Assembly: GCF_013167455.1 (NCBI RefSeq)
Contig: NZ_CP038328.1
Source: Escherichia coli O157:H7
GTDB taxonomy: Bacteria > Pseudomonadota > Gammaproteobacteria > Enterobacterales > Enterobacteriaceae
Direction: 5' to 3' (one strand)
Length of the DNA: 64,000 nucleotides
In this document: positions 10,598 to 18,794 of the stretch, piece after piece
Position numbering within the stretch: the first letter of the stretch is position 1
How the letters are laid out: every line of letters starts with the position of its first letter
Position numbers and translations under genes: made by a program
Notes under the pieces: model-generated
Seen by the model: the letters and a program-made list of their open reading frames with translations, nothing else
Told to the model about the DNA's origin: nothing
Database searches by the model: none

Positions 10598-10963
10598 TCA
10601 CAGTCCGATGATATCGTCTGCCCTGCCATGACCTCCGGACACCTCCGGCAGCGTCGGGTCCGGCATACCACTCGCCGTTTCACTGACTGACTTCTGGCGA
10701 TGGCATTCGGTACAGAGCGTCCAGAGATTCGTCTCCTCATTACCACCACCGAACTGAAGTGCAATTCGGTGATCGAGTTCACTGTCACAGAGGTCAACCA
10801 CACGACCACAGAGACAGCACTGCCCGGCATCCCTGAGCCAGATACGGCGCTTGAGGGAAACCCGGGCACTACCACTGACCCGACGCTGTTCACCCTTCAG
10901 GACATTCACCCGCCGGGTGTTCAGAGTTTTGATTCTGCCCGGTAACGTACGAAGCACAGCCAT
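10598..10963 (-). CDS. HNH endonuclease (terminase-associated)
   Basis: 121 aa; CCLCGRVVDLCDSELDHRIALQFGGGNEETNLWTLCTECH motif; HNH-cos-terS-terL arrangement as in HK97. Confidence 0.8.
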   Translation of the reverse strand: MAVLRTLPGRIKTLNTRRVNVLKGEQRRVSGSARVSLKRRIWLRDAGQCCLCGRVVDLCDSELDHRIALQFGGGNEETNLWTLCTECHRQKSVSETASGMPDPTLPEVSGGHGRADDIIGL

Positions 10964-11004
10964 GTAAAATCCTCGCCATATAACTTGTCACCAGAGGAAA
11001 GAAA

Positions 11005-11232
11005 ATGTCATCGAAAAACCGGACCCGCAGAACAACAACCCGCAACATCCGATTTCCAAACCAGATGATTGAACAAATTAACATCGCTCTTGACCAGAAA
11101 GGTTCAGAAAATTTTTCTGCGTGGGTCATTGAATCTTGCCGCCGGGAGCTGGCAGCAGACATAAAATATGCCCGTCAGTTGACTATAAAAAAGAATGATA
11201 CACAGTATGCTCTGCGATGGCTGTTCATATAA
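11005..11232 (+). CDS. ribbon-helix-helix-like small protein (possibly YlcI/YnfO-like)
   Basis: 75-aa plus-strand ORF opposite to the late operon; RNIRFPNQMIEQINIALDQKG…FSAWVIESCRREL looks like a beta-alpha-alpha fold. Confidence 0.4.
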   Translation: MSSKNRTRRTTTRNIRFPNQMIEQINIALDQKGSENFSAWVIESCRRELAADIKYARQLTIKKNDTQYALRWLFI

Positions 11233-11594
11233 CTATTTCTTTATATTGCTGAATTTATAAAAACTCACAGACATTAGCTGTATTAATTCCGAATTGAAAT
11301 AATCAGCCATATAGAATAAAAATAAAGCATAACAATAATAATCTTCTACCCAATCAGTACATTACTGCTGTGACTCCAACACGGCAGTTTTTTTATTGAA
11401 CAGATTCCAGTTTCTTCCACCATCGCACCGGACGGGCGACCATGAGGGGAGAACGCCGCGCTCCGTTTACGCGGTAAACCCCGGTGTGTATCGTTTTTGA
11501 TTATCCCCGCACACTCTCGCAGAGGAGTCTCCCTGTCGGGCTGCGGTCTCTGTTAATGCAGGAATACGGCGACGATACGGCGCATCAGCAAAAC

Positions 11595-12062
11595 TTAGTT
11601 CAGGCACTGAGTGCGGATATAGTCCTGTGCCCCTTCCAGCTGCTTCTGCATTGTCATCAACCGTTCTCTGAGGATGAAATAATCCCGTTCAGCGGTGTCT
11701 GCCAGTCGGGGGCCGGTTGCATTATCCACGCCGGAGGTGCCGGTGGCTTCACGCACGGTACCGGAGCAGGTGGCGTTGATCCGCAGGCGCTTACGACCAG
11801 CGGCAACATCAGCACGCAGAGTTTCATTTTCAGCTCTCGCATCGGCTAACTCCCTCGAGTATTTTGCATCGAGCGCAGCAACATCACGCTGGCGCACCTG
11901 CATGTCAGTAATGGTGGCATTCGCCTGTTCCAGCTCTCTGGCTTTTTTATCGCGCTGCGCTTTGTAGGTGAGCGCGTTGTCACGGTAATGGTTTGTTGCC
12001 AGCCACAGCGCACCACAGCCAACCGCCAGGACAATAATCACCACACACAGAACACGGTTCAT
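11595..12062 (-). CDS. Rz-like i-spanin
   Basis: 155 aa; N-terminal transmembrane segment then coiled-coil; last gene of lysis cassette. Confidence 0.8.
11657..11842 (-). CDS. Rz1-like o-spanin lipoprotein, embedded in Rz in another frame
   Basis: [34 protein letters not shown]: lipobox VVSAC plus proline-rich body; probable start at 11827. Confidence 0.75.
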
Positions 12063-12215
12063 CTCTCTTTCACCCCACCAGTCCCGATAACGTCAGGACT
12101 CGCCAGGCGGTGGAAAAGAAAATGGCAACCAGCATGACTAAAAATGAAATGCCGACAAGTACACAGAGGCTCTTCACCAGCGTTATGAGTTTATCTGATA
12201 TCATTAGCCACCCCA

Positions 12216-12785
12216 TCAATCCGCCTTTGTTATTTTCCCTTTGCCTGTATCAGCCAGGACAAAATCAATCAGCATATTCGCTTCATTTACCAGCGTACGG
12301 ATTTTTGATACATGCGCGGCTTTAACCTGTTTCCACTCATTCAGCCCGGTAGCAAACACACTGGCAATGTTTTTATCCCGTTTCATGTCAGCACAAGCCT
12401 GGTTGAGTTCTTCCATCACGCTCATTTTACGGGGATTAACGACAAAACCCTTCGTCCAGTACTCGTAAAGAACATCGTCGCACTCTTCCTGATACCGGAT
12501 GACCTTATCGCGGATTTCGGGTTTTACTTTGTTGGGATTAATGGTTTGTAGCCAGCCGGCAAGTTTTCGAAGTGGCATGGACACCATATTGCGTTGTTTC
12601 CCATCCTCAGCAACCATAACGATTTCCGTTATAGTTGACGCAAAACGCTGTCTTAACTTAGCCAACTGTGATTGCCAGGCCAGCCCCATCCCCGCAACGA
12701 CAGGTTTCATGGGAACGTATGGTTCGCCATTATGGTTAACTACATAAAGAGAGTTGCCGTGAAACGGCACGGCCATCATATTCAT
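12216..12785 (-). CDS. phage antirepressor (Ant/KilAC-type) within the lysis cassette
   Basis: 189-aa ORF between R and Rz; sequence family recalled from Stx-type prophages. Confidence 0.55.
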   Translation of the reverse strand: MNMMAVPFHGNSLYVVNHNGEPYVPMKPVVAGMGLAWQSQLAKLRQRFASTITEIVMVAEDGKQRNMVSMPLRKLAGWLQTINPNKVKPEIRDKVIRYQEECDDVLYEYWTKGFVVNPRKMSVMEELNQACADMKRDKNIASVFATGLNEWKQVKAAHVSKIRTLVNEANMLIDFVLADTGKGKITKAD

Positions 12786-13055
12786 CGGTTATTTCCTTTT
12801 AGTGATGAACCTTGTCTCACAGGAATCCAGCCCACAGAAAGGCACCGACAGCCAAACCGGTATCCTCAAGGGTCATCCTGAAAGGTTCTGTGTTGTGAGA
12901 TGCGCGTGAGATGCGCAGAAATGACAAAGGCATCATTACGGTGCCTGAGTGTTAAACAACTGTTTTGACTTTATTCACTTACATTTTGCCAATTTGCAGG
13001 ATTTCGTGTTATCCGTCCATGTAAGCAAACCTCATTTTTCAGCAAAATATTCTTC

Positions 13056-13589
13056 TTATCTGTCGATTCCCCAGCACGCCAGCGCGCTCTCCTGGTCACG
13101 ACGGGATATCTGACCGTAACAGTTGTTTGAACGAATACGGCAGTCTCTGCCACCGTCCTTAATCCACCAGCGAATCGCTTCGCAGGCACCTTTTCGATCA
13201 CCTGCATTAATTCGTCTGTAAAACGTCGACGGGAAACACTTACCGGGACCAATGTTGTACGGACAGAATGACGCGATCCCCGCTTTCTGGGGTTCGGTCA
13301 GCGGCACTTTGATGTTTTTCTCCACCCATGCCAGCGCCTTATCACGCTCAATGGCGTTAACCTGGTCGCATTTTTCCTTCGACAACTTCATGCCCGGGAC
13401 GACAGGTTTACCATCCACCAGGATGGCACCGCGGCAGATGGTCCAGATACCCGTACCATCACGGTATGCTGTGGTGTGGTTACCTTCCTTTTCATCCAGA
13501 AACTGGTCGAGGATTTCAGGCGCAGACGCCCCTGCACCAATCAGCGCCAGAACGGCAGCCGACAGGCCGTATCTGATTTTTGCGTTCAT
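13056..13589 (-). CDS. endolysin R (lysozyme with N-terminal signal-anchor)
   Basis: 177 aa; MNAKIRYGLSAAVLALIGAGASAPEIL… hydrophobic N-terminus, …HTTAYRDGTGIWTICRGA… lysozyme-like core. Confidence 0.8.
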   Translation of the reverse strand: MNAKIRYGLSAAVLALIGAGASAPEILDQFLDEKEGNHTTAYRDGTGIWTICRGAILVDGKPVVPGMKLSKEKCDQVNAIERDKALAWVEKNIKVPLTEPQKAGIASFCPYNIGPGKCFPSTFYRRINAGDRKGACEAIRWWIKDGGRDCRIRSNNCYGQISRRDQESALACWGIDR

Positions 13590-13639
13590 GGATATTTATC
13601 AGGATTTATCGATTTCAAATCCCTGGATATGTTAAGTCT

Positions 13640-13984
13640 TCAGGCCAGCGGTGGAGTCTTCAGAGAACCCGTAATTATTCCCGGTAGTTTTCCTCTGTAG
13701 GTTATCAACACATCCTGCGCCTCTAAAATGATGGGCCGCTTTTCCGGCAACGGACCATCCCCTTCACATAACCCGGCAGCAACATCCATGAAAAACTGCT
13801 TCGCCTGCTTTTTCGCCTCAGCTTCGTAAAACTCCAGCGTGGCACCTTCAGTACGGTCAAGACTAATCGCCACATCTGGCAACAACAGTGACGGATACCC
13901 ACCAATTTCCAGTGCCACAGTAACAGTAATCTTATCCGGGTAATTATTTATCCCTTTAACAACCAGTTCGTATTTTTTCTTCAT
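13640..13984 (-). CDS. hypothetical protein between holin and endolysin
   Basis: 114-aa ORF, same strand as S and R, no recognised motif. Confidence 0.4.
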   Translation of the reverse strand: MKKKYELVVKGINNYPDKITVTVALEIGGYPSLLLPDVAISLDRTEGATLEFYEAEAKKQAKQFFMDVAAGLCEGDGPLPEKRPIILEAQDVLITYRGKLPGIITGSLKTPPLA

Positions 13985-13988
13985 CGCT

Positions 13989-14195
13989 TTACTCTCCCCG
14001 CGCCGCCTTACGCTTATCTTCTTTAATCTTGAAATAAAGGTTTGTCAGATACGTCAGCAGGCCAAACAGCAGACTCCCCAGCACACCTATCGCCACCCAC
14101 TGGGACGGAGAGACTTTGTCCAGCAGCTGCAGTAACCAGTATCCCGTCCCCACCGCTGACGTGGTGTATGACACACCCGTTGTGATTTTTTCCAT
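13989..14195 (-). CDS. holin S
   Basis: 68 aa, [68 protein letters not shown]; two transmembrane segments, basic C-terminus; matches holin of Stx-type phages. Confidence 0.85.
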
Positions 14196-14642
14196 CTGAT
14201 GTATGTCTCCGTCACCGCCGACAGAAAATGAAAGTAAAGGAAAACAAAAAAGCCGCCAGTGTCACCCACTGACGGCCAACGCCGGGAGCCGTGATTATGG
14301 CATTCAGGCTCTGCTAAAAATGCCAGATAACATTCCGGCCTCCCCCGATTCAGGTTATAAATGACACAATATCTTGACAACATCCGTCACTGTCTGTCAG
14401 AAAATGTACTGCCATATAGAAGCAACATGTGAAGTACATCTATCCTTTTGAGCCAGCACCTCTCCACCGAAAGTCAGTGCTGGCTGTTTTTTTCCTTAAT
14501 AAAGCATCTGTAACTGAAACAATCCGCATATTGATAATATATTGACAGGCATCATTGCTGTCTGTGAAAAATAAGTCTCTACAAACATATAAGGCCTTTT
14601 AGCCAGCGTCTTCTTTTTCAGGTCAGTCGCTGGCTTTTTTTA

Positions 14643-16493
14643 TTATGCTGCCGGTGCATTTATCTCCAGCATCAGACTTTCTATCTCAACGCCATACGCT
14701 GCATTTTTTGTAACATCCGTCAGCGTCAGCGCATTCAGTCCCAGTGTCAGACTGTCTTTTATAACCTGGAATGCCGGGCCAGCCACTCCATTCAGTTTCG
14801 GAGTAACCGTGGCACTGCCGGCGGTGAACACCAGCTCCAGCGTCTGCCAGTCGTTACCGTAATCGCCGAACTCCCCCAGCTTCGTGTTTCCGGCTTTCCT
14901 GTGATGCATCAGATTCACTCTGCCGTCAGTGGTCTGAGTGAAGTACGACATCAGGAACGGATTACCGGTACCCGTCATCGCCACACCATCAGGAACGGGA
15001 GCATCCGTATACAGATAAATCCCCAGCCCGAACTGATTGTTGGTCAGCGCGCCTGACAGGCGGAACTTACAGGTCAGTCTGCCGCCCTGTGTCAGCAGGG
15101 TAATTGCGTCATCCACCGGATGCGTCAGGGACCAGGTTTTATTGCTCTGCTTGGTGATCTTAAATACACCATCTGACAACTGAATTCCGCCATCCTTAAT
15201 GCTCCAGCCCTGCGCAGCAGCCTCTCCGGCTGCCGGCAGCAGGGAGATTGTGCGAACGGACGTATCTGCAGACGGACCCGATGGCGTGTTGCCGCCGGGC
15301 GAGGGTTTGATTTCCGGTGCCTTACCACTGATGAAGGCTGAGGTGCGCCCGGCTGCGTTCAGAATAGCGGTTGCCAGACGATCCGGAATAATGCTCCTGC
15401 GCGCCCATGAACTGAAATGTGTCGGGCGGTTTGATGATACCTGGTTTCCATTCGTTCTCGATGCCGCACCGTAATATCCTGATGCCGGAATATCCGGATC
15501 TTCTGCCGGCGCGTTAGTGGCGGTATTGACGCCGTTACCGTCTGTCATGAAGGGCACAAAATAAACGCCCTCACTCTCCCTGTTTTTATACCCGCCGTAC
15601 ACGGTGTCGTACTGGGTAGCGTATGTATTTTTCCAGTAATACGTCGTGTCACCACAAATCCACGGCACATCTGCAGCACTGCCACCATGGCACTGCGCGT
15701 TAAACACGGAGAGGTCAGCACGAAACTGTGTCAGCATGGCTGTAAACAGCGCAGGTTGCTGTGCGTGGGTGGCGGCGCTCATGTCAAACTCTCCCTGCAT
15801 CCAGCACACCGCCAGCAACACATTTTTCGGGTTCTTCTGTAATGCAGCTTTAGTGCGCGCAATCAGGTCCTGATATAACGGTTTACCCACACCCCAGCGT
15901 GCCGAATCCTGGCTGGCCCCCGTGTCCGCACTGAATGTCCCCTCCGCGCCCTGGGTGAATGCAGAACCACCACGACAGCATGGTACCAGCAGGATCCCCG
16001 CGTTATTCGGGATATACGGGAGCAGTTTTTTGGCAATATGTAAGCCCTGGCCGACACAGCCGTACTGCCCTTTGCTCAGGTCTGCCTTCGGATGATTCAG
16101 CGTACTCATATCCTGCACATCATGCAGGCAGTGGTCGGCCGGAATAATATCGTTATATCTGCATGCAGCCCCACCCGGCGTAACTGTACTGCGGCGCGCC
16201 AGCTGTTTAATGCGCGGATCCGGAGCATCGTATGAATCCGGCAGCGGAAGCCCTTCACCGTAAGCCATGGCATTGGACTGCCCGGCCAGTACGATGACGT
16301 AGTACCAATCCGGCTCAGTTGCACCACTGACCACCACATCACCTTCTGCTGTAATCGCCTGCATCAGGGTATAAGGGGTTATGGCCACCGGACTACCAAA
16401 CGGCTGCCAGCCCTCTTTCAGTTTGTGTGTCAGCTTTTCCGCAAGGTCTGACGGCGACGCCGCCCTGACAACATCATAATGTTTAAATGTCAT
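14643..16493 (-). CDS. prophage sialate O-acetylesterase (NanS-p-like; N-terminal DUF1737 plus SGNH esterase)
   Basis: 616 aa; N-terminus MTFKHYDVVRAASPSDLAEKLTHKLKEGWQPFGSPVAITPY…; VIVLAGQSNAMAYG esterase motif; located upstream of S as in Stx phages. Confidence 0.75.
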   Translation of the reverse strand: MTFKHYDVVRAASPSDLAEKLTHKLKEGWQPFGSPVAITPYTLMQAITAEGDVVVSGATEPDWYYVIVLAGQSNAMAYGEGLPLPDSYDAPDPRIKQLARRSTVTPGGAACRYNDIIPADHCLHDVQDMSTLNHPKADLSKGQYGCVGQGLHIAKKLLPYIPNNAGILLVPCCRGGSAFTQGAEGTFSADTGASQDSARWGVGKPLYQDLIARTKAALQKNPKNVLLAVCWMQGEFDMSAATHAQQPALFTAMLTQFRADLSVFNAQCHGGSAADVPWICGDTTYYWKNTYATQYDTVYGGYKNRESEGVYFVPFMTDGNGVNTATNAPAEDPDIPASGYYGAASRTNGNQVSSNRPTHFSSWARRSIIPDRLATAILNAAGRTSAFISGKAPEIKPSPGGNTPSGPSADTSVRTISLLPAAGEAAAQGWSIKDGGIQLSDGVFKITKQSNKTWSLTHPVDDAITLLTQGGRLTCKFRLSGALTNNQFGLGIYLYTDAPVPDGVAMTGTGNPFLMSYFTQTTDGRVNLMHHRKAGNTKLGEFGDYGNDWQTLELVFTAGSATVTPKLNGVAGPAFQVIKDSLTLGLNALTLTDVTKNAAYGVEIESLMLEINAPAA

Positions 16494-16702
16494 TATTCCT
16501 CCCGGCCGGGATAGTGTATTAAATCAGATATGGAGTGGGCTGTAGTCCGGAAGCCTGAATGACACACGGGGACTACAGCCCAAGAAATGAAAAAAGGCCA
16601 CGCAGTTGCGCAGCCTGATAAACCCTGGTTAAAATCCACACGATAACAACACAACAATATCAGTATCTCATGCTATTGCCCGAACCCATTCGGGCATTTT
16701 TT

Positions 16703-16735
16703 TACCCATAAAAAATGCCCCTCCGGAGAGGGGCA
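16703..16735 (-). terminator. intrinsic terminator downstream of TerB-like gene
   Basis: gcccctccggagaggggc stem with U-run on the minus strand. Confidence 0.5.
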
Positions 16736-17065
16736 TGTTTGCATGCACATTCTTTTTCTTGCATGGTGCCGGGTGCCTCCCGGTGAATTCAGTATCAGCA
16801 CCTGAATCCGCGATTATCCCATATACCTGGTTGCTGATCGCCCCTCCGCACAGGGGGATTCACCATGCAGAAGTGTTTTTAATAAACAGCAAACAAAAAA
16901 ATCAAGCATTATGCAGGCTGTTTCTTTTTATCACCGGCCACAGCAATACCACAATGCCGCAGACCAGCACCCCATCCGCCAGCACCGACATGATTCTGCT
17001 GGTGAAATCCACCATCACCACCAGAAACAGCAGGAGTGCAGCCACAGCCAGGCGCAGTTTTACCG

Positions 17066-17497
17066 TCACAGGTGATTCTCCAGACGAAGACCCAGAACAC
17101 CGGCAATCTCTTCCAGCACCTTGCGCTCTTCCGGCTCAATTTCGCCGTCTGCCTCCGCAATGGCCACCGCCACATCCAGCACATCTTCCGCTTCACGCGT
17201 ATCGTGTTTCACATCCTCAATCTCGCGTAACGCGGCACGACGACCAATTTTAAAATTGGTATCCAGCTGACCGATAATGGTTGCGCTAATCGCATTAATT
17301 TCCGAGGTAAACGCAGACAACGCAGGCTGATTACGTAAGACCTGTTCGATCTTCGCTTTCTCGGATGCCTCGCATTCACCATCTGCATAGGCCACCAGGT
17401 ATGCAGCGTTAATCACCGCCTGTGCCAGATCGCGTTTCTCAAACTTTTTAATTTCCGCTGCCGCTCTGCGGGTTTTCTTTTTGAAGATTCCAAACAT
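17066..17497 (-). CDS. TerB-like (tellurite-resistance TerB domain) protein
   Basis: Start MFGIFKKKTRRAAAEIKKFEKRDLAQAVINAAYLVAYADGECEASEKAKIEQ…, acidic C-terminal half; occupies the position between the tRNAs and nanS-like gene. Confidence 0.6.
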   Translation of the reverse strand: MFGIFKKKTRRAAAEIKKFEKRDLAQAVINAAYLVAYADGECEASEKAKIEQVLRNQPALSAFTSEINAISATIIGQLDTNFKIGRRAALREIEDVKHDTREAEDVLDVAVAIAEADGEIEPEERKVLEEIAGVLGLRLENHL

Positions 17498-17666
17498 CGT
17501 GACGTTCCTTTGGGTGGGTGAGCCAACGCCCGGGAGCGATCTGCCCACAGAGAAAGTCACACTGACCACTCCGTAAGCTCACCCCCGAAAGGCTCTGTGG
17601 TTGATATGCGCCGGGCGTGGCGCAGATACAAAAAAGGCCCGCCGAAGCGAGCCTGGAAAATAAGTG

Positions 17667-17743
17667 TGGCGCGTTGTAGTGGAGTCTAACCACTGACCGA
17701 TTGCTTAGAAGGCAATTGCTCTGTCCGACTGAGCTAACAACGC
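17667..17743 (-). tRNA. tRNA-Arg (anticodon UCU)
   Basis: Cloverleaf gcgttgt/acaacgc acceptor, anticodon loop cuUCUaa, unusual T-loop ttagact, CCA encoded. Confidence 0.75.
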
Positions 17744-17756
17744 ATGATGCTGATAA

Positions 17757-17833
17757 TGGACCGCCATCGGGGACTTGAACCCCGCGCAGCCAGCTTCGAA
17801 GGCTGGCGCTCTGTCCCGATGAGCTAATAGCGG
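17757..17833 (-). tRNA. tRNA-Arg (anticodon UCG)
   Basis: Cloverleaf with anticodon stem ccagc/gctgg, loop cuUCGaa, T-arm cgggg-ttcaagt-ccccg, CCA encoded. Confidence 0.7.
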
Positions 17834-17842
17834 TATGTAATA

Positions 17843-17918
17843 TGGTGGCCCTTGCTGGATTTGAACCAGCGACCTGGCGATTATGAGTCGCTCGCTCTCA
17901 CCACTGAGCTAAAGGGCC
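17843..17918 (-). tRNA. ileZ: tRNA-Ile2 (anticodon CAU, ileX/ileZ-like)
   Basis: ggccctttagctcagtggtgagagcgagcgactCATaatcgcc…; near-identical to E. coli tRNA-Ile2 (ileX) from memory; first of three tRNAs downstream of Q. Confidence 0.75.
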
Positions 17919-17946
17919 GAGCCAAAAAATAATAATCAGATGAAAA

Positions 17947-18660
17947 TCAATAATCAAGCCCTTGCCTGGATACATATCTGTCTGGCGGGAAGCCATAATA
18001 GCGGTGAAATACAGAAATAAAGTAGGACCTGCTTGAATAACCGCATTTTTCTGCTATAGCCTGTCCATATCCATGCCGGGAACATAACATATTTACAGCA
18101 ACACGCATCCGCTCTTCCAGCAACAAGCGACTGAACATGCCCCCTTCATTTTTCAGTTTTGTCTTTAACAAACTCTCACTCATATGCAACTGTAGAGCAA
18201 TCGCACCAAGCGTCCAGCTTGCTGATATATCTGTCTGAATTATCGCCCTGACTTTGGCACTTATGCTGGATAAACATCCACTTAAAAACAATGACATCCG
18301 TTCATCTGTTTCAAACAGAGACAGGCAGGCCATCATAAGAAACATATCCGTGGCCTCTCCGGAAAATCCCTGGCTGGTAATTAAAGCCGCAGCCAACGCA
18401 GGATTGTTGGGTTCCAGCAACAGGTAAAGCGGAATGTCAGTCAGACGAGTCCTCGTCAGCTTATGCTGACTTTCCAGATATTGACTTACGACGGATTCGC
18501 TGATATCGACAATTTTAACTTTGCCATAATGCATAAGGAAAAGCTCCCTGATGCATTTGGTGGCCAGAACAACTGAGCCTGGCTTAAGTGACAACGTATC
18601 CTTTTCAAGAAAAATATTAATTGGGGAGCAAACCATGATAACTGAACAGACAACAGCCAT
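17947..18660 (-). CDS. AraC-family transcriptional regulator (prophage moron)
   Basis: 237 aa; C-terminal AraC HTH region …LGAIALQLHMSESLLKTKLKNEGGMFSRLLLEERMRVAVNML…GYSSRSYFISVFHRYYGFPPDRY. Confidence 0.7.
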   Translation of the reverse strand: MAVVCSVIMVCSPINIFLEKDTLSLKPGSVVLATKCIRELFLMHYGKVKIVDISESVVSQYLESQHKLTRTRLTDIPLYLLLEPNNPALAAALITSQGFSGEATDMFLMMACLSLFETDERMSLFLSGCLSSISAKVRAIIQTDISASWTLGAIALQLHMSESLLKTKLKNEGGMFSRLLLEERMRVAVNMLCSRHGYGQAIAEKCGYSSRSYFISVFHRYYGFPPDRYVSRQGLDY

Positions 18661-18794
18661 TATAATTTTACTTTCATTAGCAATTGGTTAGCTCAATTAT
18701 AGCCCCAAAAGGTAAATTATCATCAACACATAAGCAAAGGACTGACAGGTGTCGCCCCCCCACCAGCCGCCCATTCACCACAAATAAAAAGCCT

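Follow-up and report, generated by a model that had tools for sequence, protein, structure and literature searches.

A structured leader RNA precedes an antirepressor-like gene (ant) inside the lysis cassette of an Escherichia coli O157:H7 prophage. We analyzed a window of 64,000 nucleotides (nt) from contig NZ_CP038328.1 (RefSeq assembly GCF_013167455.1), the window being that whole stretch, numbered from its first letter. On its minus strand, read 5' to 3', lie a NanS-p-like esterase gene, the holin gene S, an open reading frame (ORF) of 114 amino acids (aa), the endolysin gene R, a gap of 270 bp, an ORF of 189 aa (ant), an ORF of 48 aa, and the spanin genes Rz/Rz1. The gap is not empty, as a preliminary description of this DNA had missed: it contains a leader whose covarying helices enclose the Shine-Dalgarno (SD) sequence of ant. 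This leader module is the new part of the analysis and appears to be undescribed. Tentatively, and with confidence just short of even, we propose that it represents a new cis-regulatory RNA family, in which a portable terminator and a pseudoknotted or bistable, SD-sequestering leader would gate potentially harmful cargo in the Q-dependent late operons of Enterobacterales temperate phages until opened by a cue of late infection. Taken as a whole, the region is best explained, and we think probably correctly, as the late operon of a lambdoid E. coli prophage of the Shiga toxin (Stx) phage type, with a P21-type lysis cassette and three passengers of differing origins. The features of the module are as follows.

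12202-12961, minus strand: inserted "ant module," 760 bp, delimited by blastn break points against phage PhiR12_5
12919-12945, minus strand: degenerate terminator-like hairpin, GGCACCGTAATGATGCC then TTTGTCATTT, read from the sequence
12783-12896, minus strand: structured leader RNA, 114 nt, ending at the ant start codon (covariance model, 117 bits, E 7e-29)
12216-12785, minus strand: Ant-like gene, 189 aa (P22_AR_N, 1.4e-45; ORF11CD3, 5.5e-6)

Pairing and folding of the leader RNA

The window leader comprises a long hairpin (helix E) that pairs CCTTT...GATGA with TCATC...AAAGG, the latter holding the SD sequence, together with an inner hairpin (helix D) and a long-range helix (helix A, CACAGA:TCTGTG). 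Related leaders were gathered by a pattern scan of viral contigs and then a covariance model (R1), giving 39 distinct copies; the first scan returned mostly chance matches, which were filtered by eye and then by the model. Among these copies helix E takes the general form CCT(T)...ATGA with TCAT...A(A)GG, and its second strand is the SD sequence of the cargo gene that follows.

Compensatory changes are found at 21 of 27 pairs in the model-built alignment of the 39 distinct sequences. In helix E, 14 of the 16 pairs have changed on both sides; compensation is seen at three of the four pairs of helix D and at four of the seven of helix A, a helix that was not in the structure of the model that built the alignment and in which 94.8% of cells are paired. 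Overall, 89% of cells are paired, a figure that falls to 27-56% once partners are slid by 1-3 columns, and none of 500 shuffles reached any of the five observed measures. An earlier MAFFT alignment gave the same covariation picture; its column register was off by one for some leader types, and helix C could hence not be scored fairly on it. The pairing result was reproduced in species-representative genomes.

The variants of helix A illustrate how far its sequence has moved while pairing was kept: besides CACAGA:TCTGTG, we found CTCAGA:TCTGAG, CATCGA:TCGATG, CACCGA:TCGGTG, GTCGAA:TTCGAC, CAGAGA:TCTCTG, CAAAGA:TCTTTG, CCCGAG:CTCGGG, CATGAG:CTCATG, and CCAAGAA:TTCTTGG. Duplex energies agree, with cognate strands at -7.9 versus -3.2 kcal/mol for non-cognate ones in helix A and at -12.2 versus -6.9 kcal/mol in helix E, a contrast seen again in species-representative genomes. 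The fold that sequesters the SD sequence is the minimum free energy structure in 36 of the 39 sequences, with a mean of -40.9 kcal/mol.

Helix A links the 5' flank with the apical region and therefore crosses helix E; it would form either a pseudoknot or a competing alternative state. A third pairing, GAACC:GGTTC, would free the SD sequence; it is kept in 98.5% of cells but is nearly invariant (AU:35 GC:3 at one pair), and the fold containing it is on average 6 kcal/mol less stable, becoming about isoenergetic in a few sequences. On these folding predictions a two-state switch is plausible. Our first hand-drawn fold, with GAACCTT:AAGGTTC and CAGGA:TCCTG as the main structure, was demoted since it showed little covariation on both alignments. 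A leader peptide was also ruled out: the ORF that begins at a conserved ATG can be as short as 3 codons or as long as 33, lies in different frames in close relatives, or is missing.

The element could serve another purpose, in RNA processing or stability (as an RNase III site, say, at which the late transcript is cut) or as a recombination linker for cargo swaps, which we consider rather unlikely. With its imperfect helix of ~25 bp, interrupted by internal loops, the leader resembles phage RNase III sites; a linker role would suit a leader that is common to unrelated cargo genes and a module with sharp boundaries. A pure DNA linker, however, would not maintain pairing through compensatory changes in three helices, and the constant inclusion of the SD sequence in the helix points to translation. 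Processing and gating are not mutually exclusive, and the predicted structures suggest that translation of ant is probably gated by the SD-sequestering leader.

For lambda cIII, alternative mRNA structures control translation (Rfam family Lambda_thermo), and phage RNase III sites are also known. Their logic is the closest known to that proposed here. The leader resembles the cIII case in being a cis-acting phage mRNA leader in which pairing around the ribosome-binding region would set translation, with a possible second conformation; it differs in that it has no sequence or model similarity to it, has an extra long-range helix and a linked upstream terminator, and is portable before many cargo genes. 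Rfam 15 gave no match at E<=1, either for positions 10900-14700 of the window or for the leaders of the P22, Salmonella, Photorhabdus, and Hamiltonella loci, and literature searches, with subscription-only papers outside their reach, found no description of the leader. The leader, present in the genetically tractable phages P22 (upstream of ORF201) and Stx phages, would offer a concrete, mutable handle on the control of the enigmatic Rha-, KilA-, and Ant-like genes in late operons.

The ant module, its cargo, and its distribution

In PhiR12_5, a 60-aa ORF replaces the module and the flanks are still homologous (R plus 94 nt on one side, orf48-Rz on the other), so that the insert boundaries at 12202 and 12961 define the module as terminator-like hairpin, leader, and ant. 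Among related leaders, 29 of 38 are preceded, most often by ~36 nt, by a strong GC hairpin with a T-run, i.e., an intrinsic terminator. Between the hairpin and the leader of the window stands a perfect 11-bp tandem direct repeat (GCGCATCTCAC, two copies; 12895-12916, minus strand), the second copy of which enters the 5' end of the leader.

The cargo genes found behind the leader encode P22_AR_N plus ORF11CD3, Rha plus ORF11CD3, Rha, KilA-N, KilA-N plus P63C, ANT, HNH_3 plus AP2, and TerB domains. E. coli, Salmonella, Photorhabdus, and Hamiltonella all keep the site that follows the endolysin or spanin gene. A moron of the classical kind comes with a promoter of its own and with a terminator downstream; unlike it, the window module contains no promoter-like site above chance and has its terminator upstream of the cargo. 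With the morons of lambdoid late operons (Juhala et al. 2000, cited in PMC4104026) the module has in common that it is extra DNA placed among late genes and that its cargo varies.

Promoter-like sites in 11000-14700 numbered 4, versus 5.1 expected by chance, and none lies between R and ant on the minus strand; a promoter of its own for ant was thus discarded as a candidate. The preliminary description had ant expressed from the late operon, which fits this layout: the gene is co-oriented with its neighbors, promoter-like sites are not above chance, and a terminator-like hairpin lies upstream. Because that terminator lies upstream and no promoter is seen, we infer that transcription of the cargo needs Q-antitermination, so that it would occur only when antiterminated transcription crosses the module. 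Translation would then follow only after something opens the leader, for which RNase III, temperature, the kinetics of the Q-modified polymerase, or a trans factor are candidate cues. Terminator and hidden SD sequence together would lock the gene twice, as would make sense if its product harms the lysogen.

Copies of the leader are spread across Enterobacterales phages. Part of the window gap (~12780-12921) matches DNA downstream of gene 15 in the Salmonella phages S149 and PS34, where it precedes KilA-N and Rha genes; compensatory changes were already plain when such regions were aligned. P22 has a leader copy (84 bits) between gene 15 and ORF201. In the P22 record (AF217253) this leader spans 4778-4898, and its terminal ATG, at 4896, is in frame and 69 nt inside ORF201, which is annotated from 4827. 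From the sequence, the annotated ORF201 start thus probably lies inside the structured leader, with a true start that may come 23 codons later. A scan that took a single genome for each species gave model-confirmed copies in Yersinia, Serratia, Xenorhabdus, Citrobacter, Siccibacter, Phytobacter, Entomohabitans, Pseudocitrobacter, Rosenbergiella, and Arsenophonus, and all 40 pattern-match loci outside the family (metagenome-assembled genomes and isolates from unrelated phyla) were rejected by it.

Phages of the 933W type carry two leader copies, one before ant and one after Rz. The window also holds a second, diverged copy, whose surroundings are as follows.

17495-17603, minus strand: second, diverged leader copy (covariance model, 29 bits, E 2e-5)
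17066-17497, minus strand: TerB-domain ORF, its start codon at the end of the second leader (Pfam TerB, 2.9e-16)
17630-17653, minus strand: strong intrinsic terminator upstream of the TerB leader
17667-17918, minus strand: three tRNA genes (Met-CAT, Arg-TCG, Arg-TCT) upstream of that terminator

The pairing of leader and TerB gene recurs in two Salmonella loci (L091 and L093; 46 bits), and 933W-type phages have a similar tRNA cluster downstream of Q.

The Ant-like protein

The 189-aa protein consists of a P22_AR_N domain (residues 5-113) and an ORF11CD3 domain (residues 122-164), and its first 127 residues are 50% identical to P22 Ant. It had been described in advance as Ant/KilAC-type, of which the Ant part holds for the N-terminal region. 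The KilAC part was ruled out: PF03374 (KilAC/ANT) gave no match at E<=0.01, and the same domain was detected in other leader-linked cargo. The protein likewise has no P22_AR_C domain, which P22 Ant has; ORF11CD3 stands in its place. It is not a truncated Ant, an idea we rejected since full-length homologues of ~188 aa are conserved in many genera, at 60-94% identity in Salmonella, Photorhabdus, Xenorhabdus, Serratia, Proteus, Sodalis, Arsenophonus, and Hamiltonella. The homologues of Photorhabdus, Salmonella, and Hamiltonella directly follow the endolysin or spanin gene, and ~170 nt of non-coding DNA precedes each.

By its sequence, then, the protein has two parts, a KilA-N/APSES-like N-domain that P22 Ant also has and a helical hairpin of the ORF11CD3 type. 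Iyer and colleagues reportedly analyzed domain shuffling among such proteins in 2002, work credited in the Pfam entries. The domain list of the "Bro network" includes Rha, KilA-N, ANT, ORF6N, and P22_AR (PMC10111431), and because P22_AR_N plus ORF11CD3 combines two network domains, the Ant-like protein is a member of this domain-shuffling network. The modular exchange of N- and C-domains that characterizes the network is seen here too, in that the C-domain is combined with Rha or KilA-N in leader-linked relatives. The leader itself is not restricted to the network, because TerB and HNH/AP2 cargo was also found.

What the protein does is a matter of several readings. It might be a late-made antirepressor that inactivates the repressors of co-resident lambdoid prophages or blocks re-repression, with the 114-aa protein tuning lysis timing, as the preliminary description had it in part; we hold this to be improbable. 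Several observations would suit it: the 50% identity to the N-terminal part of P22 Ant; the many lambdoid prophages of O157-type genomes, in which the query matches up to 18 places per genome; the combination of upstream terminator and hidden SD sequence, which would be expected if a leaked product induced prophages; and the trans-acting antirepressors known in Salmonella Gifsy phages (PMC3121763). Against these, P22_AR_C is missing and KilAC is absent, the literature found does not establish which domain of Ant binds repressor, the N-domain fold is of a DNA-binding type, and the same leader and site also serve cargo other than antirepressors, namely, Rha, KilA-N, HNH/AP2, and TerB. The half of this reading that concerns lysis timing meets two further difficulties, in that the 114-aa protein has no membrane segment and other cassette types lyse without it.

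In another reading, somewhat likelier though still on the unlikely side, the Ant-like protein would belong with Rha, Roi, and KilA of the domain-shuffling Bro network, binding DNA as a late regulator or serving in host takeover, and would have nothing to do with repressor inactivation; ORF11CD3 would then be a dimerization or partner-binding hairpin common to several such proteins. From sequence similarity, antirepressor activity of the window protein is possible. P22 Ant is under the control of the sar antisense RNA; its gene lies in the immI region with arc and mnt, whereas the window gene is flanked by R and orf48/Rz and stands behind a structured leader. Since only one domain is shared with P22 Ant, claims that prophages of Shiga-toxin E. 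coli cross-talk call for direct testing, and the name "antirepressor" is one that these late-operon proteins still have to justify. Literature searches, again with subscription-only papers outside their reach, found no functional study of an ant gene in a lysis cassette.

The YdfR-family protein and the rest of the cassette

The remaining genes of the region are listed in the order in which they are transcribed.

14643-16493, minus strand: NanS-p-like esterase gene
13989-14195, minus strand: S, P21-type class II (pin)holin, 68 aa (Pfam Phage_holin_2_1, PF04971, 1.2e-32)
13640-13984, minus strand: YdfR-family (DUF1327) gene, 114 aa (Pfam DUF1327, 4.7e-46)
13056-13589, minus strand: R, lysozyme, signal-anchor-release (SAR)-type endolysin (Pfam Phage_lysozyme, PF00959, 3.8e-24; phrog_7 endolysin)
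12070-12216, minus strand: 48-aa single-pass membrane ORF (phrog_4906, 1.5e-30; hydropathy)
11595-12062, minus strand: Rz i-spanin (Pfam Phage_lysis, PF03245, 4.9e-50)
11657-11842, minus strand: Rz1 o-spanin, embedded in Rz (Pfam Rz1, PF06085, 1.7e-21)

Strong profile matches for all cassette genes confirm the arrangement. The two extra ORFs of the preliminary description, 189 aa at 12216-12785 (minus) and 114 aa at 13640-13984 (minus), are present exactly at those positions and co-oriented inside the cassette, the flanking holin, lysozyme, Rz, and Rz1 genes being confirmed by Pfam; profile searches place both in real gene families (P22_AR_N plus ORF11CD3, and DUF1327) and not among chance ORFs. 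A third co-oriented passenger, the 48-aa ORF at 12070-12216, had been missed. The observation made at that stage is therefore real but ordinary, partly mislabeled in its mention of KilAC, and accompanied by functional guesses that found no support.

The 114-aa protein matches DUF1327 with 155 bits against a cut-off of 25 and is 47% identical to K-12 YdfR across residues 1-74. The family has a conserved N-terminal domain (approximately residues 1-75, including the motif VEGAxLEFYEA) and a variable C-terminal tail; K-12 YdfR and the window protein share the N-domain and the position between holin and lysozyme, and their tails are unrelated. Family members range from 103 to 287 aa; the window has the short-tailed form of 114 aa, compared with 103 to 263 aa in other phages. 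Variants include internal duplications (proteins P0001 and P0002), holin fusions (P0010, a read-through fusion), and one ANT-fused form (P0038, with a KilAC/ANT fragment), and in phage Stx1_14040 (locus L003, 4202-4993) the N-domain is joined to an unlike tail in a 263-aa form. It is a narrow family: 1.84 billion proteins include 56 representatives of it at 50% identity, and the named members are from Escherichia and Shigella. Two giant proteins, P0261 (3093 aa) and P0281 (3443 aa), match YdfR residues ~13-55 in 14-19 repeated stretches at 28-33% identity, which may reflect a shared beta-repeat or a compositional effect.

The gene ydfR starts 4 nt past the holin stop codon. In all contexts examined it follows a Phage_holin_2_1 holin gene at 4 nt and is itself followed by the gene for a lysozyme of 173-177 aa, whether ant is present or not, and the order S-YdfR-R with the 4-nt spacing is found also in K-12 Qin and in loci L216 and L217-L220. 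It is thus an old, tightly linked member of this cassette type. An obligatory functional link between YdfR and the leader was rejected: ydfR cassettes without ant lack the leader (loci L004, L007, L217, and L220 gave no model match), and leaders are present in phages without ydfR (P22, Photorhabdus).

The protein had been suggested to be a lysis regulator, for which we find no support: it is without a transmembrane segment, acidic (pI about 5), and absent from other working endolysin cassettes. Its AlphaFold model has three strands and a helix (predicted local distance difference test, 72-89 over residues 1-70); a BFVD fold search with it returned uncharacterized proteins only, at E>0.01, and sequence searches of the PDB gave no matches. 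The sole experimental data on the family come from a 2026 study of K-12 YdfR (PMC13232886), in which the protein bound the catalytic (N-terminal) half of RNase E (two-hybrid with 1-597/1-598, co-purification with 1-598), the binding surface was mapped to YdfR residues 1-72, RNA co-purified, and overexpression altered few transcripts. The mapped residues coincide with the conserved domain of the family. By analogy with its K-12 relative, the only member for which binding is reported, the catalytic half of RNase E is the most likely binding partner of the window N-domain. YdfR, a small and probably cytoplasmic protein, would then adjust RNA decay or processing late in infection and not the membrane steps of lysis, a role as RNA-decay modulator in which our confidence is modest. 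Known phage modulators of the RNA-decay machinery are T7 gp0.7, phiKZ Dip, and T4 Srd; should YdfR act on RNase E, these few would gain a member from a temperate phage.

The passengers might instead be selfish or decaying genes that ride along and do nothing for the phage. The highly variable YdfR C-termini, with their many truncated, duplicated, and fused forms, would suit such a reading, as would the degenerate state of the window's upstream terminator. We nevertheless regard it as very unlikely: relatives with as little as 47% identity still share the YdfR N-domain and the 4-nt spacing to the holin gene, the Ant-like protein has remained full-length across many genera, and the leader structure is under selection.

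The 48-aa ORF overlaps the ant stop codon by a single base (TGATG), stops 7 nt short of Rz, and is an annotated coding sequence in RefSeq and in phage BP-4795. It is 67% identical to a 43-aa ORF upstream of Rz in PhiR12_5, a phage without ant, which indicates that it travels with Rz and not with ant; it was accordingly excluded as a component of the ant module. In a Salmonella prophage (L091, 4564-4746), the ORF that overlaps the ant stop codon encodes a 60-aa protein with a lipobox (LLVGC), possibly an o-spanin or a unimolecular spanin, so that there too ant would lie between the endolysin gene and a spanin-like gene.

The lysis genes themselves are of familiar kinds. The N-terminus of R has a Gly/Ala-rich hydrophobic stretch of the SAR type, read from the sequence, and is predicted to be a SAR domain. 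The phage 21 holin has a dual start (S68 holin, S71 antiholin), unlike S of the window, where no in-frame ATG, GTG, or TTG occurs within the eight codons directly upstream of the start and there is thus no S71-type antiholin form. The holin homologues in BP-4795 and locus L217 are 71 aa long, compared with 68 aa in the window, and similarity to BP-4795 ends precisely at the holin start (query position 2799).

The arrangement is already known, having been annotated for years in BP-4795 and K-12 Qin, and the two extra genes carry annotations in hundreds of phages of the Stx type. Hand-annotated BP-4795 (S-ORF47-R-ant-ORF50-Rz) has the same genes in the same order as the window, the cassette of the Stx1 phage of Morioka V526 shares that order, and the Qin cassette (essQ-ydfR-rrrQ-rzpQ) has the S-ydfR-R order in common with it. 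A 2021 survey of 279 Stx phages catalogued the cassette and "Ant" families, without functional tests (PMC8136144). Of 5426 complete E. coli genomes, 569 cover at least 80% of the 3-kb block, as do 40 phage records, with 100% identity in E. coli FRIK1989 and 99.8% in many Stx1a phages; the ant block is 99-100% identical across many Stx1a and Stx2a phages.

The gap between the esterase and holin genes (14200-14640) contains convergent terminator-like hairpins at 14251-14277 (minus strand) and 14620-14636 (plus strand), and it gave no Rfam match. Anti-sRNAs of the AsxR/AgvB type were considered and set aside, the published pairs of enterohemorrhagic E. coli sitting 3' of stx, at a moron site downstream of pR', and not at this locus. 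Stx phages carry stx upstream of the lysis genes, whereas in the window a TerB-like ORF occupies the site that stx has in FRIK1989: despite a lysis block 100% identical to that of the FRIK1989 Stx1a prophage, 16500-18700 holds no stx upstream of the esterase gene. A sharp mosaic junction is seen there, with the TerB ORF, the tRNA genes, and a gene for a 237-aa AraC-family regulator (17947-18660) in place of stx.

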